IMG/VR virus record: IMGVR_UViG_3300025294_000010
Coordinates: 1 to 44,536 of that record
Origin: a virus
Direction: 5' to 3' (one strand)
DNA: 44,536 nt
The notes beneath the pieces were generated by a model, which saw only the letters and a list, made by a program, of their open reading frames with translations, made no database searches and was not told where the DNA came from. Below, in pieces: positions 6,007 through 44,536 of the stretch. The translations under genes and the position numbers were made by a program. How positions within the stretch are numbered: the stretch's first letter is position 1; the number at the start of each line of letters is the position of its first letter.

Positions 6007-6794
6007 GGGACTTTGCGATCTCCAGCGCGAAGTCCGGCATGAACCGCCAGCGCAACAAGGGCGGCGCGCCGAAGGACTCGTTCTACTCGCTGAAGGAGTG
6101 CTACGTCACCTCCGACCGCAGCGTGGTGCCGCGCCCCGGCACCGTGCGCGACGTGGCGCTGCCGGTTGGCACGAAGGGACTCATGGCCTTCCGAGGGAGG
6201 CTATGGGTGTTCTCCAGCGAGCCGCTGACCTCGCCGGACCCGAAGTACGTCATCTCCACCCTGCAGCACCCGGACCCGGCATCCACGGCCAACCTGAAGG
6301 AGATCCACTTCGCGCAGCCGTTCCTCGGCTTCCCCTACGTCGTGGCGGAGTTCGATGACGACCCGACGAAGTTCTACCACTACTGGCTGCAGGACACCGG
6401 CACCTGGCTGCCGAACCACATCTACGCCATCGGCGAGGTGGTGCAGCCCACGTCCCCGAACGGATACACCTACACCGCCACGCGCCTGGGCGCAGCCAAC
6501 CCAGTGTGGGCTGCCGGACAGCCGCGCGCGATCGGTGACGTGATCGAGCCGACGGTGGCCAACGGCTACCAGTACCGCGTCATCGACGTGGCCGGCGACA
6601 ACCCGGTGTCCGGGTCCATCGAGCCGGCATGGATCGCGCAGGATGGCGCCATCGTCTACGAGGACAACGACACCACCGGCACTTCCAGCGGCAGCGCTGC
6701 GCCGACCGTCCCGCCGTCGGTGAGCGACCGCTACAGCAACCAGGGCGGCTCTGGCGGCGCGATGACCAACAGCAACACGACGCAGGCGAACTGA
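6003..6794 (+). CDS. Tail-associated protein with NGY / EPxW repeat motifs
   Basis: 263 aa with an ATGA start overlap. It carries two copies of G(E/D)V(V/I).PT..NGY.Y motifs and SGSIEPAWIAQDGAIVYED (aa 144-222). Confidence 0.6.
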   Translation: MRDFAISSAKSGMNRQRNKGGAPKDSFYSLKECYVTSDRSVVPRPGTVRDVALPVGTKGLMAFRGRLWVFSSEPLTSPDPKYVISTLQHPDPASTANLKEIHFAQPFLGFPYVVAEFDDDPTKFYHYWLQDTGTWLPNHIYAIGEVVQPTSPNGYTYTATRLGAANPVWAAGQPRAIGDVIEPTVANGYQYRVIDVAGDNPVSGSIEPAWIAQDGAIVYEDNDTTGTSSGSAAPTVPPSVSDRYSNQGGSGGAMTNSNTTQAN

Positions 6795-24168: not shown

Positions 24169-24350
24169 CTCCTGACTTCCGCCTGTTCCGCGTCCGCGCC
24201 GACTACTCCCTGTGGATCAACGCTGGCGCCAGCGCGTTCCTGTACGACATGCCGCGCGAGTCCAACCCGGAAACCGATGAGCGCTACCGCGCCGCATGGT
24301 TCTTCGGCTACGACGACACGAAGGCTGCTCAGGAGGGGCGTGCTGCGTGA
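24162..24350 (+). CDS. Hypothetical protein
   Basis: 62 aa. Its ATG overlaps the upstream TAG, and its stop overlaps the helicase GTG start (GTGA). Confidence 0.6.
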   Translation: MVAPDFRLFRVRADYSLWINAGASAFLYDMPRESNPETDERYRAAWFFGYDDTKAAQEGRAA

Positions 24351-26800
24351 CCATCCAGCTGCGCCACTACCAGGAAGACCTGGTATCCGGCATACGCACC
24401 GCTATGGGCAACGTGCAGCGCGTTCTGGCCGTCCTTCCCACGGGCGGCGGGAAGTGCCTGGCTGCCGGAACTCCAGTCATGCTACATGACGGCCGCGTCA
24501 TATCGGTTGAGAATGTCCGCGTTGGCGATCTTCTCATGGGTCCTGATAGTCAACCTAGAAAGGTTGAATCGCTTGCGCGAGGCCGCGAGGCGCTGTACCG
24601 GGTTACCCCCGTCAAGGGTGAAAGTTACACGGTCAACGAGTCCCATATATTGTCGCTAAAGATGACTGTTACCGGGGAAATAAAGAACATCGAGGTACGC
24701 GACTACTTGGGGTCAAGTAAGACATTCAAGCATTGCGCAAAGGGGTGGCGCGTCGCTGTGGACTTCCCGCCACACTCGGATCAATTAGCGATTCCAGCCT
24801 ACATGCTTGGAGTTTGGTTGGGCGATGGTAATAGTAGGAATTTCAGCATCACTACTGGTGATCCAGAGATTGCCTATGAGGTTGCGCGATATGCAGATTC
24901 AATTGATATGAAGATTCGCGTTGAGCACAACTCCCCAGGGTCGGTGATAATGCATGTTAGCGGAGGCCCCGTGCCGCCTGGCCGAGGGGGTGGAACCATG
25001 GGGAATTCCCTCCGCAAATACAATCTGACCAACAACAAGCACATACCGCACAGATATAAAACCGGATCTCGCCATGAACGCCTAGAACTGCTTGCTGGAA
25101 TCATAGATACCGATGGACACATGGGAGGGAAGGGTTTTGACCTGACACTAAAGTCAGAGCGGCTCATGGATGATGTTATTTTCGTAGCACGCTCTTTGGG
25201 ATTCTCTGCCTATAAGAGAGAGTGCAAAAAGACCTGCGGGAATAATGGAAAGGTTGGAACATACTGGCGATGCCACATAAACGGACCAGTAGAATCTGTA
25301 CCTTGCCGTGTTGCGCGCAAGCGTGCAGATCCTCGGCGCCAGATAAAAGATCCGCTCGTAACGGGTATCACTGTAGAGCCTGCTGGATACGGTGAATATT
25401 ATGGGTTCGAGGTCTCTGGAAATGATCGCCTATTCCTACTGGGTGACTTTACTGTCACTCATAACACCGTGTGCTTCAGCTACATGGCATCCCGCGCGCG
25501 AGAGCGTGGCCGCAGGATCGGAATCTTTGCCCACCGAGCCGAGCTGCTTACGCAAATCAGTGACACACTGCGCGCATTCCGCGTACCGCACCAGATCATC
25601 GGGCCGAATACCGGGCAGCCTGATCGCAGGCATACCGTGTTCGTTTGCTCCGCGCAGACCTACGCGCGCCGCGCCGCGCAGATGCCGGAGTTCGACCTCA
25701 TCATCGTGGACGAGGCGCACCATGCGACGCAGGGATCGACATGGGACCAATGCCTGCAGCGCTCAGTGCTGGCCAAGGTCATCGGCGTGACGGCCACCCC
25801 GCAGCGTCTGGATGGGCGCGGCTTAGGGGAGACGTTCCAGGAGATGGTCATCGGCCCGCGTCCTCATGAGCTGATCCAGATGGGGCACCTGTCCAAGTAT
25901 CGCCTCCTATCCCCCGGCAAGATCGACCTGTCCGGGGTTCGGATGCTGGGCGGCGACTATAACAAGGGCCAGGTCAACGAGGCCGTGGACAAGCCGGCGA
26001 TCACCGGCGACATCGTGAAGCACTACCGGGACTACCTCAATGGCGCGCCGAGCGCTGCCTTCTGCGTTACCGTGGCCCATGCCCAGCATGTCGCGGAGCA
26101 TTTCCGCGCATCCGGGTATACCGCGGCATCCATCGACGGGAAGATGGAGAAGTTCGAGCGCGCACAGATCGTGCGGGACTTCCGCGAAGGGCGGCTCAAC
26201 CTCATCACCTCAGCGGAGATCCTGTCCGAGGGCTTCGACGTGCCTGGCATGTTCGGCGCCATCCTGATCCGACCAACGAAGTCCCTGTCCCTGTATCTGC
26301 AGCAGGTCGGGCGCGCGCTGCGCACGGCGCCTGGCAAGGACCGAGCGATCATTCTGGACCACGTTGGCAACTCCGACGACGACAACCACGGCCTGCCATG
26401 CGCTGACCGGCACTGGACGCTGGAAGGTGGCGCCGCGCCGCGCGCCAAGGGTGAGGTATCCACCTACCGCGAGTGCATGAAGTGTCGCACCCGCTCCCCG
26501 CTCTACCACGCGAAGTGCCCGGAGTGCGGAACTCCGTTCCCGGTGCGCGTGCGAGAGATCGAGGAGCGCGACGGAACGCTGATCGAGCAGGACATCGAGG
26601 AGCGGCGCGAGAAGGCGAAGAAGGAAATCTCCCCGCAGATGCGCGAACAGCAGAAGACCCGTAGTAAGGAAGGGCTCGCGTCGCTGTTCCAGCGTCAGAT
26701 GAGTGAAAAGTTGGGCCGCGCCCTCACGCCTGATGAGATGGCTTCCCAGGTCAGGCGCGCCGGGCATGTGATGGATGCGCGCGCGAGGAAGGAATGGTGA
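24347..26800 (+). CDS. SF2 (DEAH-box) DNA helicase precursor interrupted by an intein; C-terminal zinc ribbon
   Basis: GTG 24347 has an AGGAGGGG RBS 8 nt upstream. The exteins give LPTGGGK|TVCF (motif I), IIVDEAHH (II), GVTATP (III) and QQVGRALR (VI). CMKCRTRSPLYHAKCPECG is a CxxC-x10-CxxC ribbon. The precursor is 817 aa and the spliced product would be 480 aa. Confidence 0.9.
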   Translation: MTIQLRHYQEDLVSGIRTAMGNVQRVLAVLPTGGGKCLAAGTPVMLHDGRVISVENVRVGDLLMGPDSQPRKVESLARGREALYRVTPVKGESYTVNESHILSLKMTVTGEIKNIEVRDYLGSSKTFKHCAKGWRVAVDFPPHSDQLAIPAYMLGVWLGDGNSRNFSITTGDPEIAYEVARYADSIDMKIRVEHNSPGSVIMHVSGGPVPPGRGGGTMGNSLRKYNLTNNKHIPHRYKTGSRHERLELLAGIIDTDGHMGGKGFDLTLKSERLMDDVIFVARSLGFSAYKRECKKTCGNNGKVGTYWRCHINGPVESVPCRVARKRADPRRQIKDPLVTGITVEPAGYGEYYGFEVSGNDRLFLLGDFTVTHNTVCFSYMASRARERGRRIGIFAHRAELLTQISDTLRAFRVPHQIIGPNTGQPDRRHTVFVCSAQTYARRAAQMPEFDLIIVDEAHHATQGSTWDQCLQRSVLAKVIGVTATPQRLDGRGLGETFQEMVIGPRPHELIQMGHLSKYRLLSPGKIDLSGVRMLGGDYNKGQVNEAVDKPAITGDIVKHYRDYLNGAPSAAFCVTVAHAQHVAEHFRASGYTAASIDGKMEKFERAQIVRDFREGRLNLITSAEILSEGFDVPGMFGAILIRPTKSLSLYLQQVGRALRTAPGKDRAIILDHVGNSDDDNHGLPCADRHWTLEGGAAPRAKGEVSTYRECMKCRTRSPLYHAKCPECGTPFPVRVREIEERDGTLIEQDIEERREKAKKEISPQMREQQKTRSKEGLASLFQRQMSEKLGRALTPDEMASQVRRAGHVMDARARKEW
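24455..25465 (+). mobile_element. Intein (337 codons) with LAGLIDADG-type homing endonuclease core, inserted in the helicase P-loop
   Basis: It starts with Cys (CLAAGTPVML) right after GGGK and ends ...LLGDFTVTHN, followed by a +1 Thr. TVNESH provides a block-B-like His. Two LAGLIDADG-type motifs are present (LGVWLGDGNS and LLAGIIDTDGH). The insert is visibly lower in GC than the flanking extein DNA. Confidence 0.85.
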
Positions 26801-36598: not shown

Positions 36599-36641
36599 GT
36601 GAGGCGGTCCAGGTAGATCCGGCGATGCGGCGAGTGGGACC

Positions 36642-36670
36642 ATTATTCAAACGAATCCGGCCTCGATCAA
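36642..36670 (-). promoter_or_regulatory. Sigma70-type promoter for the leftward small-ORF operon
   Basis: On the minus strand: TTGATC (36670..36665), an exact 17-nt spacer, then AATAAT (36647..36642). This places a start near 36635, about 36 nt upstream of ATG 36598. The -10 and spacer coincide with one ATTATTCAAACGA repeat copy. Confidence 0.55.
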
Positions 36671-36773
36671 CACTACGGATGGAATTATTCGTTCCATGGA
36701 TAGAACAGTCTCCGATGGTCACGCCACCAGGTGGCCCAATTACTCAAACGAACACGTATTCGTCGTTATTAAG

Positions 36774-36825
36774 ATTTGTAGCACATGTGACACGCCGGCC
36801 CATACCTGTCACACCTGCTACAAAT
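36774..36825. promoter_or_regulatory. 19-bp-arm inverted repeat (operator or origin-like element A)
   Basis: ATTTGTAGCACATGTGACA (36774..36792), a 14-bp GC-rich spacer, then TGTCACACCTGCTACAAAT (36807..36825). 17 of 19 arm positions are complementary. Confidence 0.7.
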
Positions 36826-36874
36826 CTAAATAACTTTTGTGATTGAGCGTGGCTTCGATCAAGTTAAATAGGGG

Positions 36875-37003
36875 GATAACGATTCGAATAGCAGATGTGA
36901 CTTTCAGGAAAGTAAAATTTGGAAAAAACACTTACCCTATGGTCAACTACACACACACGTGTCTAGGAATTTTTCAGTCACACCTGTTATTCGAATCGAT
37001 AAC
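36875..37003. promoter_or_regulatory. 28-bp-arm inverted repeat with 73-bp AT-rich spacer (element B)
   Basis: GATAACGATTCGAATAGCAGATGTGACT (36875..36902) versus the reverse complement of AGTCACACCTGTTATTCGAATCGATAAC (36976..37003) gives 24 of 28 identical. The spacer contains an A6 run and the palindrome ACACGTGT (36955..36962). Confidence 0.7.
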
Positions 37004-37050
37004 CCATTTCGGCATCCGAAGCCTTGCTCGTTTGAGTAATTCGGGTTACC

Positions 37051-37455
37051 ATGAGCGCCATGGCCCGACCGACCGTTCCCTACAACCCCGAGCTTGCCGA
37101 GGCGATCCTGGCCGAGCTGCAGGCCGGGGTGAAGCTGTGCGAGCTGAAGCGCCTGGGCGCGGTGCCGACCTGGCACGTCCTGAAGCGCTGGCGTGCGCAG
37201 GTGCCGAAGTTCGATTACTATTTCCGCCTGTACTCGCATCGGAAGCTCCCCGTGGGAGACACGCCGAGCGAGCTACTGTTCCAGCTGGACGTGGATCGGG
37301 CGCTCAAGGCCAGGGGCTTTGCGTACCGGCGCTGGGATGAGGTTGAGGAGCAGATGCGGCTCGGGATGGGCCGCGGAGAGCGCCTGATCGACGTTGATGG
37401 CTTGGCTGAGGCTGGGGCGCGGTTCGACCCCGAGGACCCGGAGAGCGCGTTTTGA
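37051..37455 (+). CDS. HTH protein related to the N-terminal DNA-binding domain of the TerS-like protein
   Basis: 134 aa. PELAEAILAELQAGVKLCELKRLGAVPTWHVLKRWRAQVPKF aligns by eye with LEQAEQILMHLAQGQRITHIAAMPDIPAYWVIAKWKREHPWF of 37742..38335. There is no clear SD, and the start could also be ATG 37060. Confidence 0.65.
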   Translation: MSAMARPTVPYNPELAEAILAELQAGVKLCELKRLGAVPTWHVLKRWRAQVPKFDYYFRLYSHRKLPVGDTPSELLFQLDVDRALKARGFAYRRWDEVEEQMRLGMGRGERLIDVDGLAEAGARFDPEDPESAF

Positions 37456-37465
37456 GTGACATGCG

Positions 37466-37552
37466 GCGCAGGTCAGGTGAGGGTGCCGGCATCGCCGGCG
37501 CGGCCGGTTCGAGTCCGGACGGAAACAGGCGGTTCGAATCCGCCCCTGCGCT
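37466..37552 (+). ncRNA. tRNA-like element (canonical acceptor stem and T-arm, non-canonical D region)
   Basis: GCGCAGG (37466..37472) pairs perfectly with CCTGCGC (37545..37551). The T-arm is GGCGG-TTCGAAT-CCGCC (37528..37544). There are two further hairpins: GCCGG-CATCG-CCGGC (37485..37499) and CCGG-TTCGAGT-CCGG (37504..37518). A 12-nt linker takes the place of a normal D-arm junction, and no CCA is encoded. Confidence 0.55.
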
Positions 37553-37598
37553 TTCCCGCCTGCCTGGCTTCAGGGAGGTGGCGGAGATCCCGCCAGGC

Positions 37599-37745
37599 AT
37601 GGGCGGCGTCGGACAGCCGGCATTCGTGCACCACATGGCCGGGACCACGCTCACGGTCGAGGGCGGCAGGCTGAGCTATGCGCTGTCACTCCGCCAGAGA
37701 CGCCTGGCAATCCACCGCCGCCGCGCCGCCAGGGGCCGCCAGTGA
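37599..37745 (+). CDS. Possible 48-aa arginine-rich peptide
   Basis: ATG 37599 has a GGAGA 11 nt upstream. GC3 is about 87 percent by my count, and the stop overlaps the GTG start of the next gene (GTGA). The C-terminus is LRQRRLAIHRRRAARGRQ. Its small size makes the call tentative. Confidence 0.35.
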   Translation: MGGVGQPAFVHHMAGTTLTVEGGRLSYALSLRQRRLAIHRRRAARGRQ

Positions 37746-38335
37746 GCGAGCTTCGCCGCCTGCGCCCCACCGTCGAGGCCCGCATCGAAGCCCGGCAGGA
37801 GCTTCGCGCCGAGCGCCTTGCGCCGCCGCTGGTGCTAGAGCAGGCAGAGCAGATCCTGATGCACCTGGCGCAGGGCCAGCGGATCACGCACATTGCCGCC
37901 ATGCCCGACATCCCAGCCTATTGGGTCATCGCCAAGTGGAAGCGCGAGCACCCCTGGTTCGCCGAGGCCGTGGCCGATGCCGAGCGCGCGGGCGCGGAGA
38001 AGATGCTGTGGGACATGCTGGAGATCGCCGACGACGAGAACCGGGCGCCAGCCTGCAGGGAGGTGTCCATCAAGGCGCGCCAGTTCGCGGTGAAGGTGCT
38101 GGACCGCAAGCGCTTCGACCCGGCCGTCAAGGTCGAGGTCAGCCAGGGCGGGGTGAATGCGGACGAGCTGTCCGACGCCGAGCTGGCCAGGATCGTGAGG
38201 CAGCGGGAGCGGGGCCAGGCTGAGGCGATCGACGCGGCGACCCCGGGGAGCCCCCCGCTGGCGGACCCGGGGGCGTCGAAACGAGATGCCCCCCCACTAT
38301 CCCCGCCATCCCAAAAACCTTTTTCAAACGAATAG
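37742..38335 (+). CDS. Terminase small subunit-like DNA-binding protein
   Basis: 197 aa with a GTG start. An N-terminal HTH is followed by ERAGAEKMLWDMLEIADDENRAPACREVSIKARQFAVKVLDRKRFDP. This follows the pattern I associate with a common phage TerS family (A......L..IA.D.........R...........K.....). Confidence 0.6.
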   Translation: MSELRRLRPTVEARIEARQELRAERLAPPLVLEQAEQILMHLAQGQRITHIAAMPDIPAYWVIAKWKREHPWFAEAVADAERAGAEKMLWDMLEIADDENRAPACREVSIKARQFAVKVLDRKRFDPAVKVEVSQGGVNADELSDAELARIVRQRERGQAEAIDAATPGSPPLADPGASKRDAPPLSPPSQKPFSNE

Positions 38336-38398
38336 CCGCTCGCCGAGGAAACATGGTAGGCTCCCACCCCGGCATCGGCATAAGCACTGGAGGCATGT

Positions 38399-38725
38399 AT
38401 GAAGTATCGGCAGCGCGGCACGGAGGTATCGGCGATGGGCTGGACGGGCGGCTCGGCCTCGGCGGCGGAGGTGGTGGCGTGGCTGGGTGACGTGGGCTGG
38501 CGGGCGGCGTATGTGCCGGCCACGGGAGCCGCTCCTGCACCGGCCGCGGAGGAGCAGGGCGCGCCTACCGACCCGGCATACCGTCCGGAGGCCATCTTCC
38601 TTGAGTCCCAGGTCAGCGGCGCGCAGACGGTGGTGGCGCCGGCATGGTTCGCGCTGGAGGCGGATGGGGTGCGGGTGTACAGCCCGGAGGCGTTCGAGGA
38701 GCGGTATGAGGAGGTGATGCCGTGA
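38399..38725 (+). CDS. Hypothetical protein
   Basis: 108 aa with a GGAGG RBS 6 nt upstream. Confidence 0.65.
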   Translation: MKYRQRGTEVSAMGWTGGSASAAEVVAWLGDVGWRAAYVPATGAAPAPAAEEQGAPTDPAYRPEAIFLESQVSGAQTVVAPAWFALEADGVRVYSPEAFEERYEEVMP

Positions 38726-43530: not shown

Positions 43531-44536
43531 ATGAGTACGAAAGAGATCACCGCCGAGATGACCGAGGCGGACGTGGTGAACGCGGCGCTGGCCGCGGCCG
43601 AGCTGGAAGAAGCCCCGCCTGCCCAGGTGGAGGACCCGGCGCCGGCTGAAGAAGCCGAGCCGACTGACCCGCCGCCGCCTGCCGAAGACGCCCCGCCGGC
43701 CGAGGATCCGGCCCCGGAGGAGCCCACACCCGAGGAAGTGCCGCCGGAGGAGCCGCCGCCGGCCGAGGAGCTGACCGAGGAGCAGAAGGCCAACCAGGAG
43801 GCCGACGAGGCGGCCAAGGCCATCGGCATCCGGTCGGAGCGCTCCACCGAGAAGTTCCGCGAGGTCTACAACGACGCCAAGAAGGTGCTTCCGGCGGTGC
43901 GCGCAGAGCTGGAGCAGGTCCGCCCGGCCGCCGAGCGCTGGGAACACACCATGCGCTTCGTGCAGGAGCACAACATCTCCCCGGAGATGTACGGACAGGC
44001 CATGAACATGATGGCCGGCCTTGCTTCCAACGACCTGGGCGTGCTGGAGAAGGTCGCAGGCGCCCTGGAGGCCGAACTGCAGCGCGTCAACCAGCGCCTT
44101 GGCCGGGAGGGCGCCGGTTTCGACCCGCTCTCCACGCCGGAGAACCACGACCTGCGCATGCGCGTGGAGACCGGGGAGATCGACCGCTCCGCGGCGCTGG
44201 AGATAGGCCGCCTGCGCCATGCCAACAGCCACAACGAGCAGGTGCGAGCAGAGCAGCAGCGACGGCAGCAGGAGGCAGACAGCGCGGCTGAGGCGCGCAA
44301 CCAAGCTGTGGCCGAGCTTGACAGGCTCGGCGAGGAGCTGTCGAAGCTGGACCCGAACTTCGCGGCAAAGTCCGCCGCCATCGAGCCGTCCATGAAGGCG
44401 ATGATCGCCCGCCTGCCGCCGCGGGAGTGGGCCGCGGCCTACAAGGAGGCCTACATGGGCTTCCAGTACACGCCGCCGCCTGCCGCGCGCGCCGCGCCCG
44501 CGCCCACGCCGCTGCGACACCAGCCTCTGCGCCCCA
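43531..44536 (+). CDS. Scaffolding-like protein, N-terminal part (runs off the window end and continues at base 128 of the circular map)
   Basis: ATG 43531 has a GGAGAG RBS, and there is no stop before the window end, which is why it is absent from the ORF track. An acidic Pro/Glu/Ala-rich N-terminus is followed by long helical/coiled-coil sequence. It lies between the portal and capsid genes. Confidence 0.75.
   Translation, partial: MSTKEITAEMTEADVVNAALAAAELEEAPPAQVEDPAPAEEAEPTDPPPPAEDAPPAEDPAPEEPTPEEVPPEEPPPAEELTEEQKANQEADEAAKAIGIRSERSTEKFREVYNDAKKVLPAVRAELEQVRPAAERWEHTMRFVQEHNISPEMYGQAMNMMAGLASNDLGVLEKVAGALEAELQRVNQRLGREGAGFDPLSTPENHDLRMRVETGEIDRSAALEIGRLRHANSHNEQVRAEQQRRQQEADSAAEARNQAVAELDRLGEELSKLDPNFAAKSAAIEPSMKAMIARLPPREWAAAYKEAYMGFQYTPPPAARAAPAPTPLRHQPLRP
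44410..44536. repeat. Second copy of the 127-bp end overlap (equals 1..127)
   Basis: Identical by direct reading. Confidence 0.95.

Follow-up and report, generated by a model that had tools for sequence, protein, structure and literature searches.

The 44,536-nucleotide (nt) stretch of viral DNA analyzed here (IMG/VR record IMGVR_UViG_3300025294_000010, positions 1 to 44,536; hereafter called the window) carries an 87-nt element resembling a transfer RNA (tRNA) at positions 37466-37552 of its plus strand. Judged from sequence comparisons, this element is probably a non-coding RNA gene encoding an anticodon-less tRNA mimic, which belongs to a phage-borne family with two T-arms and is processed like a tRNA; we assign a probability of roughly 0.7 to this reading. 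The double T-arm RNAs form a recurrent and apparently undescribed family, which in the sequence collections searched occurs almost only in phage DNA. The original prediction, made from the sequence of the window alone, of a tRNA-like non-coding element that is neither a canonical class I nor a canonical class II tRNA is supported by these analyses. The element is composed of the following parts, deduced from inspection of the sequence and from alignment to two structure models of the family, R1 and R2 (see below):

37466-37552, plus strand: tRNA-like element, total span of 87 nt (sequence inspection and structure model alignment)
37466..37472, plus strand: 5' strand of the acceptor stem, GCGCAGG (aligns to the acceptor helix in models R1 and R2)
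37473..37484, plus strand: D-like region UCAGGUGAGGGU (12 nt) with a vestigial hairpin of 2 base pairs (bp), UC-AGGU-GA, and a GG loop
37485..37499, plus strand: hairpin H2, GCCGG-CAUCG-CCGGC (aligns to the capped hairpin of the family, often with a C-GACG-G tetraloop)
37500..37503, plus strand: junction GCGG between H2 and T-arm 1 (family consensus AGA; R2 alignment)
37504..37518, plus strand: T-arm 1 (T1), CCGG-UUCGAGU-CCGG, with T-loop consensus
37519..37527, plus strand: linker ACGGAAACA between T1 and T2 with the GG..AA motif of the family
37528..37544, plus strand: T-arm 2 (T2), GGCGG-UUCGAAU-CCGCC, directly 5' of the 3' strand of the acceptor
37545..37552, plus strand: 3' strand of the acceptor, CCUGCGC (37545-37551), and discriminator U (37552); CCA is not encoded

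In the R2 alignment all Watson-Crick pairs of the acceptor (7/7), H2 (5/5) and T2 (5/5) are intact, and T1 retains four of five. The predicted acceptor stem of seven perfect pairs (GCGCAGG / CCTGCGC), the textbook T-arm which abuts it at 37528-37544 and is followed by the discriminator T 37552, the second T-like hairpin at 37504-37518 and the G+C-rich hairpin at 37485-37499 were all found in place. Two details of the prediction had to be corrected: the 12 nt TCAGGTGAGGGT are present but hold the vestigial D-like hairpin and are not a plain linker, and the GCCGG hairpin exists but equals a separate helix of the family, H2, instead of replacing the D-arm. The short D-like stem is scored unpaired by R2; at this position the family carries a hairpin of 3-4 bp with a YUGGU loop, and the member L157 has AC-AGGU-GU. 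H2 can be extended to 8 bp with a 3-nt loop in a constrained fold, and an anticodon-type loop is absent. T1 of the window element consists of 4 bp and an outer G.A mismatch, its 7-nt loop being closed by a G-C pair. Within the family the T1 loops read UUCGAUU, UUCGAAU or UUCGACU, and the UUCGAGU of the window is also found in L157 and L181. Family linkers, among them UUGGCAAU, UGGUAAAU, GGUAAC and GGAAA, range from 6 to 10 nt and contain GG..AA.

Within the 44.5 kb of the window the T-loop 11-mer GGTTCGARTCC is found two times, in each case inside the element and with 25 nt between the copies; 0.04 occurrences were expected, and two matches were obtained in none of 100 shuffles. As had been anticipated, the element is missed by standard tRNA finders. 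ARAGORN called neither a tRNA nor a transfer-messenger RNA (tmRNA) anywhere in the window, and Rfam gave no match for the element at gathering thresholds. With relaxed settings the only Rfam match spanning the element was tRNA-Sec (23.1 bits; gathering score 47), and three further matches reported at E-values up to 10 (E 6-9) are noise. The suggested Y-RNA-like module found no counterpart in Rfam or ARAGORN, and a tmRNA, which had also been considered, was neither reported by ARAGORN nor matched in Rfam. Folding gave a mixed answer: compared with shuffled controls the minimum free energy of the element has a z-score of only -2.3, which is unimpressive taken alone, and the minimum-free-energy fold pairs the two T-loops with each other because both hold the palindrome UUCGA. 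When the T-loops were held unpaired, a cloverleaf-like fold became optimal (-44.0 kcal/mol vs. -47.4 kcal/mol for the minimum-free-energy fold).

When IMG/VR was scanned for pairs of T-loop motifs separated by 8-30 nt, at least 120 stretches were returned. Among the matches listed, many were tRNAs followed by stray T-arm fragments, and a subset showed the layout of the window element with a 7-bp acceptor enclosing both T-arms and a total length of 80-100 nt. These also shared features beyond the search pattern: a hairpin with a YUGGU loop, H2 (often C-GACG-G), an AGA junction and the GG..AA linker. From two pattern scans of IMG/VR more than 60 elements emerged, which are 80-100 nt long and have the common order acceptor, D-like hairpin (GG loop), capped hairpin, T1 (UUCGAUU), GG..AA linker, T2 and 3' strand of the acceptor. 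The specific pattern GGTTCGANTCC-N3-8-GGNAA-N2-9-GGTTCRANTCC matched 69 stretches of IMG/VR, but no more than 10 in cellular genomes totaling 596 Gb. Of these 10, several look phage-derived, including an 8-kb stretch with 18 tRNAs and a short contig with three tRNAs, and another one lies in a prophage-like island of Bradyrhizobium huanghuaihaiense. There (L141, isolate genome NZ_VLLA01000003.1) a 73-nt double T-arm element without H2 occupies positions 6079-6151, 2.7 kb from a tRNA-Leu gene and adjoining prophage-looking open reading frames (ORFs). A scan independent of T1 (CGACGG...GGNAA...T2) recovered mostly tRNA-Tyr genes and a few new members. In the metagenomes of JGI, a window-like pattern had no match, and a G+C-biased family pattern led to two loci, of which L208 is weak (28.8 bits) and L207 has no R2 match at E ≤0.001. 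The double T-arm family is absent from Rfam 15 and unannotated in the sole GenBank phage which carries it, and no description of a double T-arm tRNA-like RNA was found in the literature searched by full text, although one may exist elsewhere.

Since MAFFT alignments of the diverse members were structurally unreliable, model R1 was seeded with three nearly collinear cyanophage copies and then used to realign all matches. The resulting family alignment comprises 65 matches with 39 distinct sequences, which fall into 20 groups at 80% identity and have G+C contents of 0.42-0.64. Model R2 was built from the 65 family members, with the window excluded. In the family alignment 97.1% of the cells form standard pairs vs. 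66% after shuffling, 22 of the 26 pairs vary on both sides and all five helices covary. The covariation score is 0.75 vs. 0.17 for shuffled alignments and at most 0.13 with the partners slid. Members with T1 stems that break the GG/CC pattern (L225, L272 and L226, recovered through other features) still carry TTCGAYT loops, and L054:4468-4564, to which only the model led, shares this T1 loop. For this reason the T-loop identity of T1, as read from these sequences, is not only a matter of ascertainment by the search pattern.

With R1 the only match in the window was the element itself (30.3 bits, E = 8e-6), which alone is not decisive because ordinary tRNAs also obtain 20-32 bits. The R2 score stands well above noise: with 45.1 bits (E = 1.5e-9) the element is the sole significant match on both strands of the 44.5 kb, and the next-best match in the window has 11.7 bits. 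When 873 kb of tRNA-rich phage DNA were searched with R2, the three top matches were other double T-arm elements (43.8, 40.7, and 38.1 bits), the best tRNA-sized match obtained 35.9 bits, and tRNAs of T4 and T5 scored no more than 27.1 bits. G+C-rich members outside the seed reached 44.5 (L157), 43.7 (L141), and 43.1 bits (L181). As the linker and all helices of the window element except the D-like stem align to R2, and as L157 and L181 resemble it and score alike, it is classified on sequence grounds as a somewhat reduced member of the family.

Several observations weigh against this assignment. Both models give ordinary tRNAs 20-36 bits, so part of the score of the window element is generic tRNA-likeness. 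The pair statistics lean towards the structure, since the family alignments follow the structure of the model, and the search pattern prescribed two G-C pairs of each T-arm. In the window copy the D-like hairpin is limited to 2 bp and T1 to 4 bp next to the G.A mismatch; this copy is a divergent member which could be decaying. Finally, there is no covariation at all inside the lineage of this phage, where it is unreadable because the five available copies are identical. These copies (L002-L004, L291, and L292) are independent metagenomic sequences from three repositories and match each other to 100% over the 1.7-6.6 kb surrounding the element. The proposed search for compensatory changes in related phages was accordingly only partly successful: the relatives are either identical or without the element, and covariation was found in the wider double T-arm family.

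Most members of the family lie inside phage tRNA arrays, 2-8 nt from the adjacent tRNAs. The member of the Synechococcus phage S-CREM1 (OP535465.1, 44482-44570), for example, exactly fills an unannotated gap between a tRNA-Phe which ends at 44478 and a tRNA-Ile which starts at 44576. The Rfam tRNA model gives this archetype 20.2 bits vs. a gathering score of 29. ARAGORN overlooks some family members and reports others as tRNA-Ser(cga) or tRNA-Leu whose ends are shifted. None of the copies inspected encodes CCA behind the discriminator. About a dozen members, including that of the window, are solitary, and all ten solitary members examined are co-oriented with both flanking ORFs. In L149/L183 the element is located just 3' of the portal gene and therefore, like the window copy, in a packaging/head module. 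When all ORFs lying up to 5 kb from 41 elements (the window and 40 family loci) were compared with one another, no recurrent protein partner emerged, which points to host factors. The scattered neighbors include metallophosphoesterases, RNA ligases, HNH endonucleases, and portal proteins.

Some further observations concern these surroundings. In L110 (1799-2131, plus strand), L152 (4974-5531, plus strand), and L077 (11604-12122, minus strand) an RNA ligase (PF09414) or a calcineurin-like metallophosphoesterase is encoded 0.5-2 kb from the elements; such neighbors may link some members to RNA repair, and they are inconsistent across the family. A cyanophage contig with a double T-arm element also carries a wcaG RNA motif (L036 7677-7774, minus strand; Rfam RF01761, 104.5 bits). 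In many phage arrays a normal tRNA is followed within ~10-25 nt by an additional, isolated hairpin that resembles a T-arm and has a short acceptor-like tail (L010, L029, L047, L055, L028, L071, L120, and L059/L095/L114). These hairpins could be recombination scars or minihelix elements.

In the window the element is situated among genes on the same strand:

37051..37455, plus strand: upstream gene of 134 amino acids (aa), which stops 10 nt short of the element and has a C-terminus (...ESAF) conserved among syntenic relatives
37578..37745, plus strand: downstream small ORF in its probable true extent, with the start at GTG 37578 or ATG 37599 (third-position G+C frame signal)
37742..38335, plus strand: gene of the small terminase subunit, terS (PF20901 Sf6_terminase, E = 1.7e-13)

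The stop of the small ORF overlaps the start of terS, and terL is also encoded downstream. An ORF of 94 or 97 aa (ORF 37452/37461-37745) which runs open across the element is called in three public collections. Its reality had been questioned in the original prediction, and this doubt proved justified: the G+C content by codon position over 37461-37552 is flat (0.68/0.74/0.73), while real genes in the window have 0.81-0.93 at the third (GC3) and 0.44-0.58 at the second position (GC2), a signature that appears only from ~37560. The 94-aa product has no homolog besides itself among 5.8 billion proteins, and the ORF is probably not translated through the element. At the position of the small ORF, relatives have an ORF of 58-65 aa or none, and convincing homology between the small ORF of the window and theirs was not found. 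In ten loci from six terS relatives (47-56% identical) the intergenic gap is absent at the position of the element; the next gene starts at, or a few bases from, the end of the upstream gene (EEAF/EENF; here ESAF). These syntenic loci also contain no tRNA-like match. Because neither the gap nor a tRNA-like match exists in the relatives, the comparison identifies the element as a lineage-specific insertion of ~100-120 nt between the 134-aa gene and the small ORF. No promoter-like or terminator-like site was found to adjoin it.

Just 3' of the element, at 37553-37612, CCGCCTGCCTGG ... CCAGGCATGGGCGG can by eye form a hairpin. It would enclose a Shine-Dalgarno-like GGAGG run (~37575-37579) and include ATG 37599, and from its sequence it may control translation of the small ORF. 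Upstream of the 134-aa gene, between divergent gene blocks, the G+C content falls sharply (0.33-0.5 vs. 0.66-0.70) at 36600-37050, and this stretch probably regulates the late operon or holds its promoter.

Contigs of 44,550 bp and 44,421 bp assembled from this phage (L002, L003) begin at different points, which suggests that the genome is complete and circularly permuted or terminally redundant. A DNA search with positions 37000-38400 against 50,697 GenBank phages gave no match, and loci found with the proteins of terS and the upstream gene were only identical copies or relatives without the element. The suggestion that the element is the remnant of a tRNA-type attachment site was not borne out. 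Its 24-nt 3' end, which was to be compared with 3' ends of host tRNAs, is exactly matched neither in the GTDB representatives of 185,579 species (one genome each, a set from which the host itself may be absent) nor in 2.9 million contigs of IMG/VR. The ten large ORFs that were tested in the region from 17 to 34 kb yielded no integrase; among their products are RecT, an exonuclease of the YqaJ type, a helicase with an intein, a DUF3987/DnaB-N protein, four proteins without recognized domain, and one with a sub-threshold fibritin match. In addition, the 5' strand of the acceptor is present, which would be superfluous for the core of a phage attachment site (attP), and a tRNA-type attP core was rejected. 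The helicase mentioned is a ResIII/DEAD-box protein of 834 aa encoded at 24296-26800 on the plus strand, which is split by an intein (Hom_end-associated Hint and LAGLIDADG homing endonuclease).

Could the molecule nevertheless decode? In an aberrant tRNA-Ser(CGA)-like RNA, CCGG-UUCGAGU-CCGG would be the anticodon arm, as the original prediction had contemplated, and the extra hairpin an insertion in the D-region. The 7-nt loop of T1 in the window copy indeed carries U in place of U33 and the purine G as nucleotide 37, and several family members are called tRNA-Ser(cga) or tRNA-Leu by ARAGORN. However, these calls rely on shifted acceptor stems and the window copy is not called; the Rfam tRNA model remains below 23.1 bits for the window, and the S-CREM1 archetype falls short of the gathering score as well. 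Throughout the family the loop and its closing pair (G53-C61) match the T-loop consensus UUCGAUU, and in 18 of the 20 groups that make up the seed alignment a pyrimidine (U, in one group C) stands where nucleotide 37 would be, which to our knowledge is essentially never the case in decoding tRNAs. The same scaffold carries UUCAAUU in some members, so that the “anticodon” would be a different one, and neither the conserved “variable loop” of 7-10 nt with GG..AA nor the extra helix is a feature of tRNAs. Given the T-loop consensus with a pyrimidine at position 37, the UUCAAUU variants and the rejection of the molecule by tRNA models, we regard a decoding function as very unlikely, and the reading of T1 as a CGA anticodon arm is not upheld. 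It is hardly credible that the segment is instead the N-terminus of the protein encoded by ORF 37452/37461-37745 and its RNA-like fold a coincidence. This ORF is open, its stop overlaps the terS start, and gene callers in three collections accept it; yet the codon-position signal is lacking over 37461-37552, the product has no homolog except itself, the relatives have a shorter ORF or none here, and a covariance-model E-value of ~1e-9 together with two copies of a T-loop 11-mer expected 0.04 times would have to be accidental.

That the element is an inert relic without present function, either as a tRNA gene in decay or as what recombination or integration left behind (a tRNA fragment of the attP type), is unlikely. 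It would fit a lineage-specific insertion that is absent from relatives, with a degenerate D-like hairpin and a mismatched T1, and phage tRNA arrays hold many tRNA fragments. As the window copy is reduced and solitary, there is some chance of a decaying insertion. On the other hand, all pairs of the acceptor (seven), H2 (five), and T2 (five) are preserved, the sequence is identical across five samples, and the element matches a covarying family better than any tRNA; its 24-nt 3' end matches no tRNA 3' end in the GTDB representatives or IMG/VR, and the ten ORFs tested included no integrase. We consider it quite unlikely, too, that the role of the element is primarily in cis, as a “punctuation” at which RNase P and RNase Z cut the late mRNA before the small ORF and the terminase genes and release a functionless RNA. 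The location is suggestive in this respect, as a stop codon lies 10 nt ahead of the element and the next start 25-46 nt behind it, all in one orientation and with no promoter- or terminator-like site nearby; the co-orientation of the ten solitary members and the position of L149/L183 in the packaging/head module, just after the portal gene, agree with it. But a plain minihelix of acceptor and T-arm would do for RNase P, and such a role gives no reason why T1, H2, the linker motif, and the D-like loop are conserved in 20 groups; moreover, most members lie in tRNA arrays, where an extra processing site is needless.

Comparison with known RNAs sets the preferred reading, an anticodon-less tRNA mimic, in context. 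Canonical tRNAs (RF00005) share with the element the 7-bp acceptor with discriminator, the 5-bp T-stem with GGUUCGAAUCC loop abutting the 3' strand of the acceptor and the GG-containing D-like loop, and family members in arrays keep the spacing of tRNAs. The element differs by lacking an anticodon arm, since the loop of H2 measures 3-5 nt and T1 follows the T-loop consensus, and by its second T-arm, GG..AA linker, and extra capped hairpin. The tRNA-like domain of tmRNA is likewise a mimic of the top half of tRNA with acceptor, T-arm, reduced D-loop and no anticodon, but the 87-nt element has no mRNA-like region, pseudoknots, tag ORF or G3:U70 pair. YrlA, a bacterial Y-RNA module, is another anticodon-less tRNA mimic; its 5' and 3' ends form a stem that binds Ro/Rsr, whereas the termini of the element form the acceptor stem. 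RNAs of the YrlA type occur in some phages, too. No Ro60 gene was noticed in the window, whose genes were only partly annotated. tRNA-Sec (RF01852) is similar as a long tRNA-like molecule with an extra arm before the T-arm. Apart from the low score (23.1 bits vs. 47), the match is poorly aligned in the D and anticodon regions, and the element has a 7/5 instead of an 8/5 acceptor/T geometry and no UCA anticodon loop. The nearest conceptual precedents are phage small RNAs encoded among tRNA genes, namely rnaC and rnaD (species 1 and 2 RNA) of T4 and RNA1, RNA2, and RNA3 of T5, which are annotated in GenBank as stable or tRNA-like RNAs of unknown function, a description attached to T4 and T5 for decades. 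With 103-172 nt they are longer, except for T5 RNA3 (73 nt), and the double T-arm was not detected in them. As members of the family they were rejected, scoring at most 20.3 bits with R2 (rnaC 20.3); stretches inside T5 RNA1 and RNA2 obtained ~14 and ~12 bits.

In the structure read from the sequence the 7-bp acceptor stacked on T2 reproduces, together with the GG-containing D-like loop, the top half of a tRNA, and the place of the anticodon and variable arms is taken by H2, a complete second T-arm with a GG-containing neighbor of its own, and the GG..AA linker. The position on the same strand as the flanking late genes, with no promoter- or terminator-like site adjoining, suggests that the element is co-transcribed with them. 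The RNA may then be released like a tRNA, by a cut of RNase P at the 5' end, trimming of the 3' end and addition of CCA, which is proposed because CCA is not encoded. Such precursor-like processing would be consistent with the minihelix of acceptor and T-arm, the array context of the family, and the missing CCA. Without an anticodon loop the RNA could not decode; most likely it would act through its elbow, T-arm, and acceptor surfaces by occupying or recruiting a factor that recognizes tRNAs. Candidate targets are a tRNA-targeting defense enzyme of the host, for which the RNA would be a decoy, or an enzyme of tRNA processing or modification. The ideas of a decoy and of a handle for RNase P or the CCA-adding enzyme, put forward in the original prediction, would agree with these findings. 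Excision would also sever the polycistronic mRNA directly ahead of the small ORF and the terminase genes, which may be a secondary or, less likely, the primary role. As a tentative and more far-reaching possibility, the sequences might represent a virus-specific and hitherto undescribed class of “two-elbow” anticodon-less tRNA mimics which act in trans, either as decoys or inhibitors of host enzymes that bind the elbow, T-arm or acceptor of tRNAs (tRNA-targeting defense nucleases or nucleotidyltransferases) or as adaptors that hijack processing or modification enzymes.

The family extends over more than 60 viral contigs and at least 20 sequence groups, from AT-rich genomes to those with 72% G+C, and includes one cultured cyanophage. 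It would represent a class of genes that tRNA finders and Rfam have overlooked or that has been mislabeled as tRNA-Ser or tRNA-Leu. For structural biology, a naturally occurring RNA that combines two T-loop/GG modules would be of interest as well. Phage tRNA genes have recently been recognized as counter-measures to tRNA-cleaving defenses. If the “two-elbow” mimics are real, they would constitute an RNA-based strategy beside the full phage tRNAs used against anticodon nucleases. By keeping the top half of the tRNA, duplicating the T-arm and discarding the anticodon, the family offers a concrete class of RNAs for asking what non-decoding tRNA mimics do in infection.

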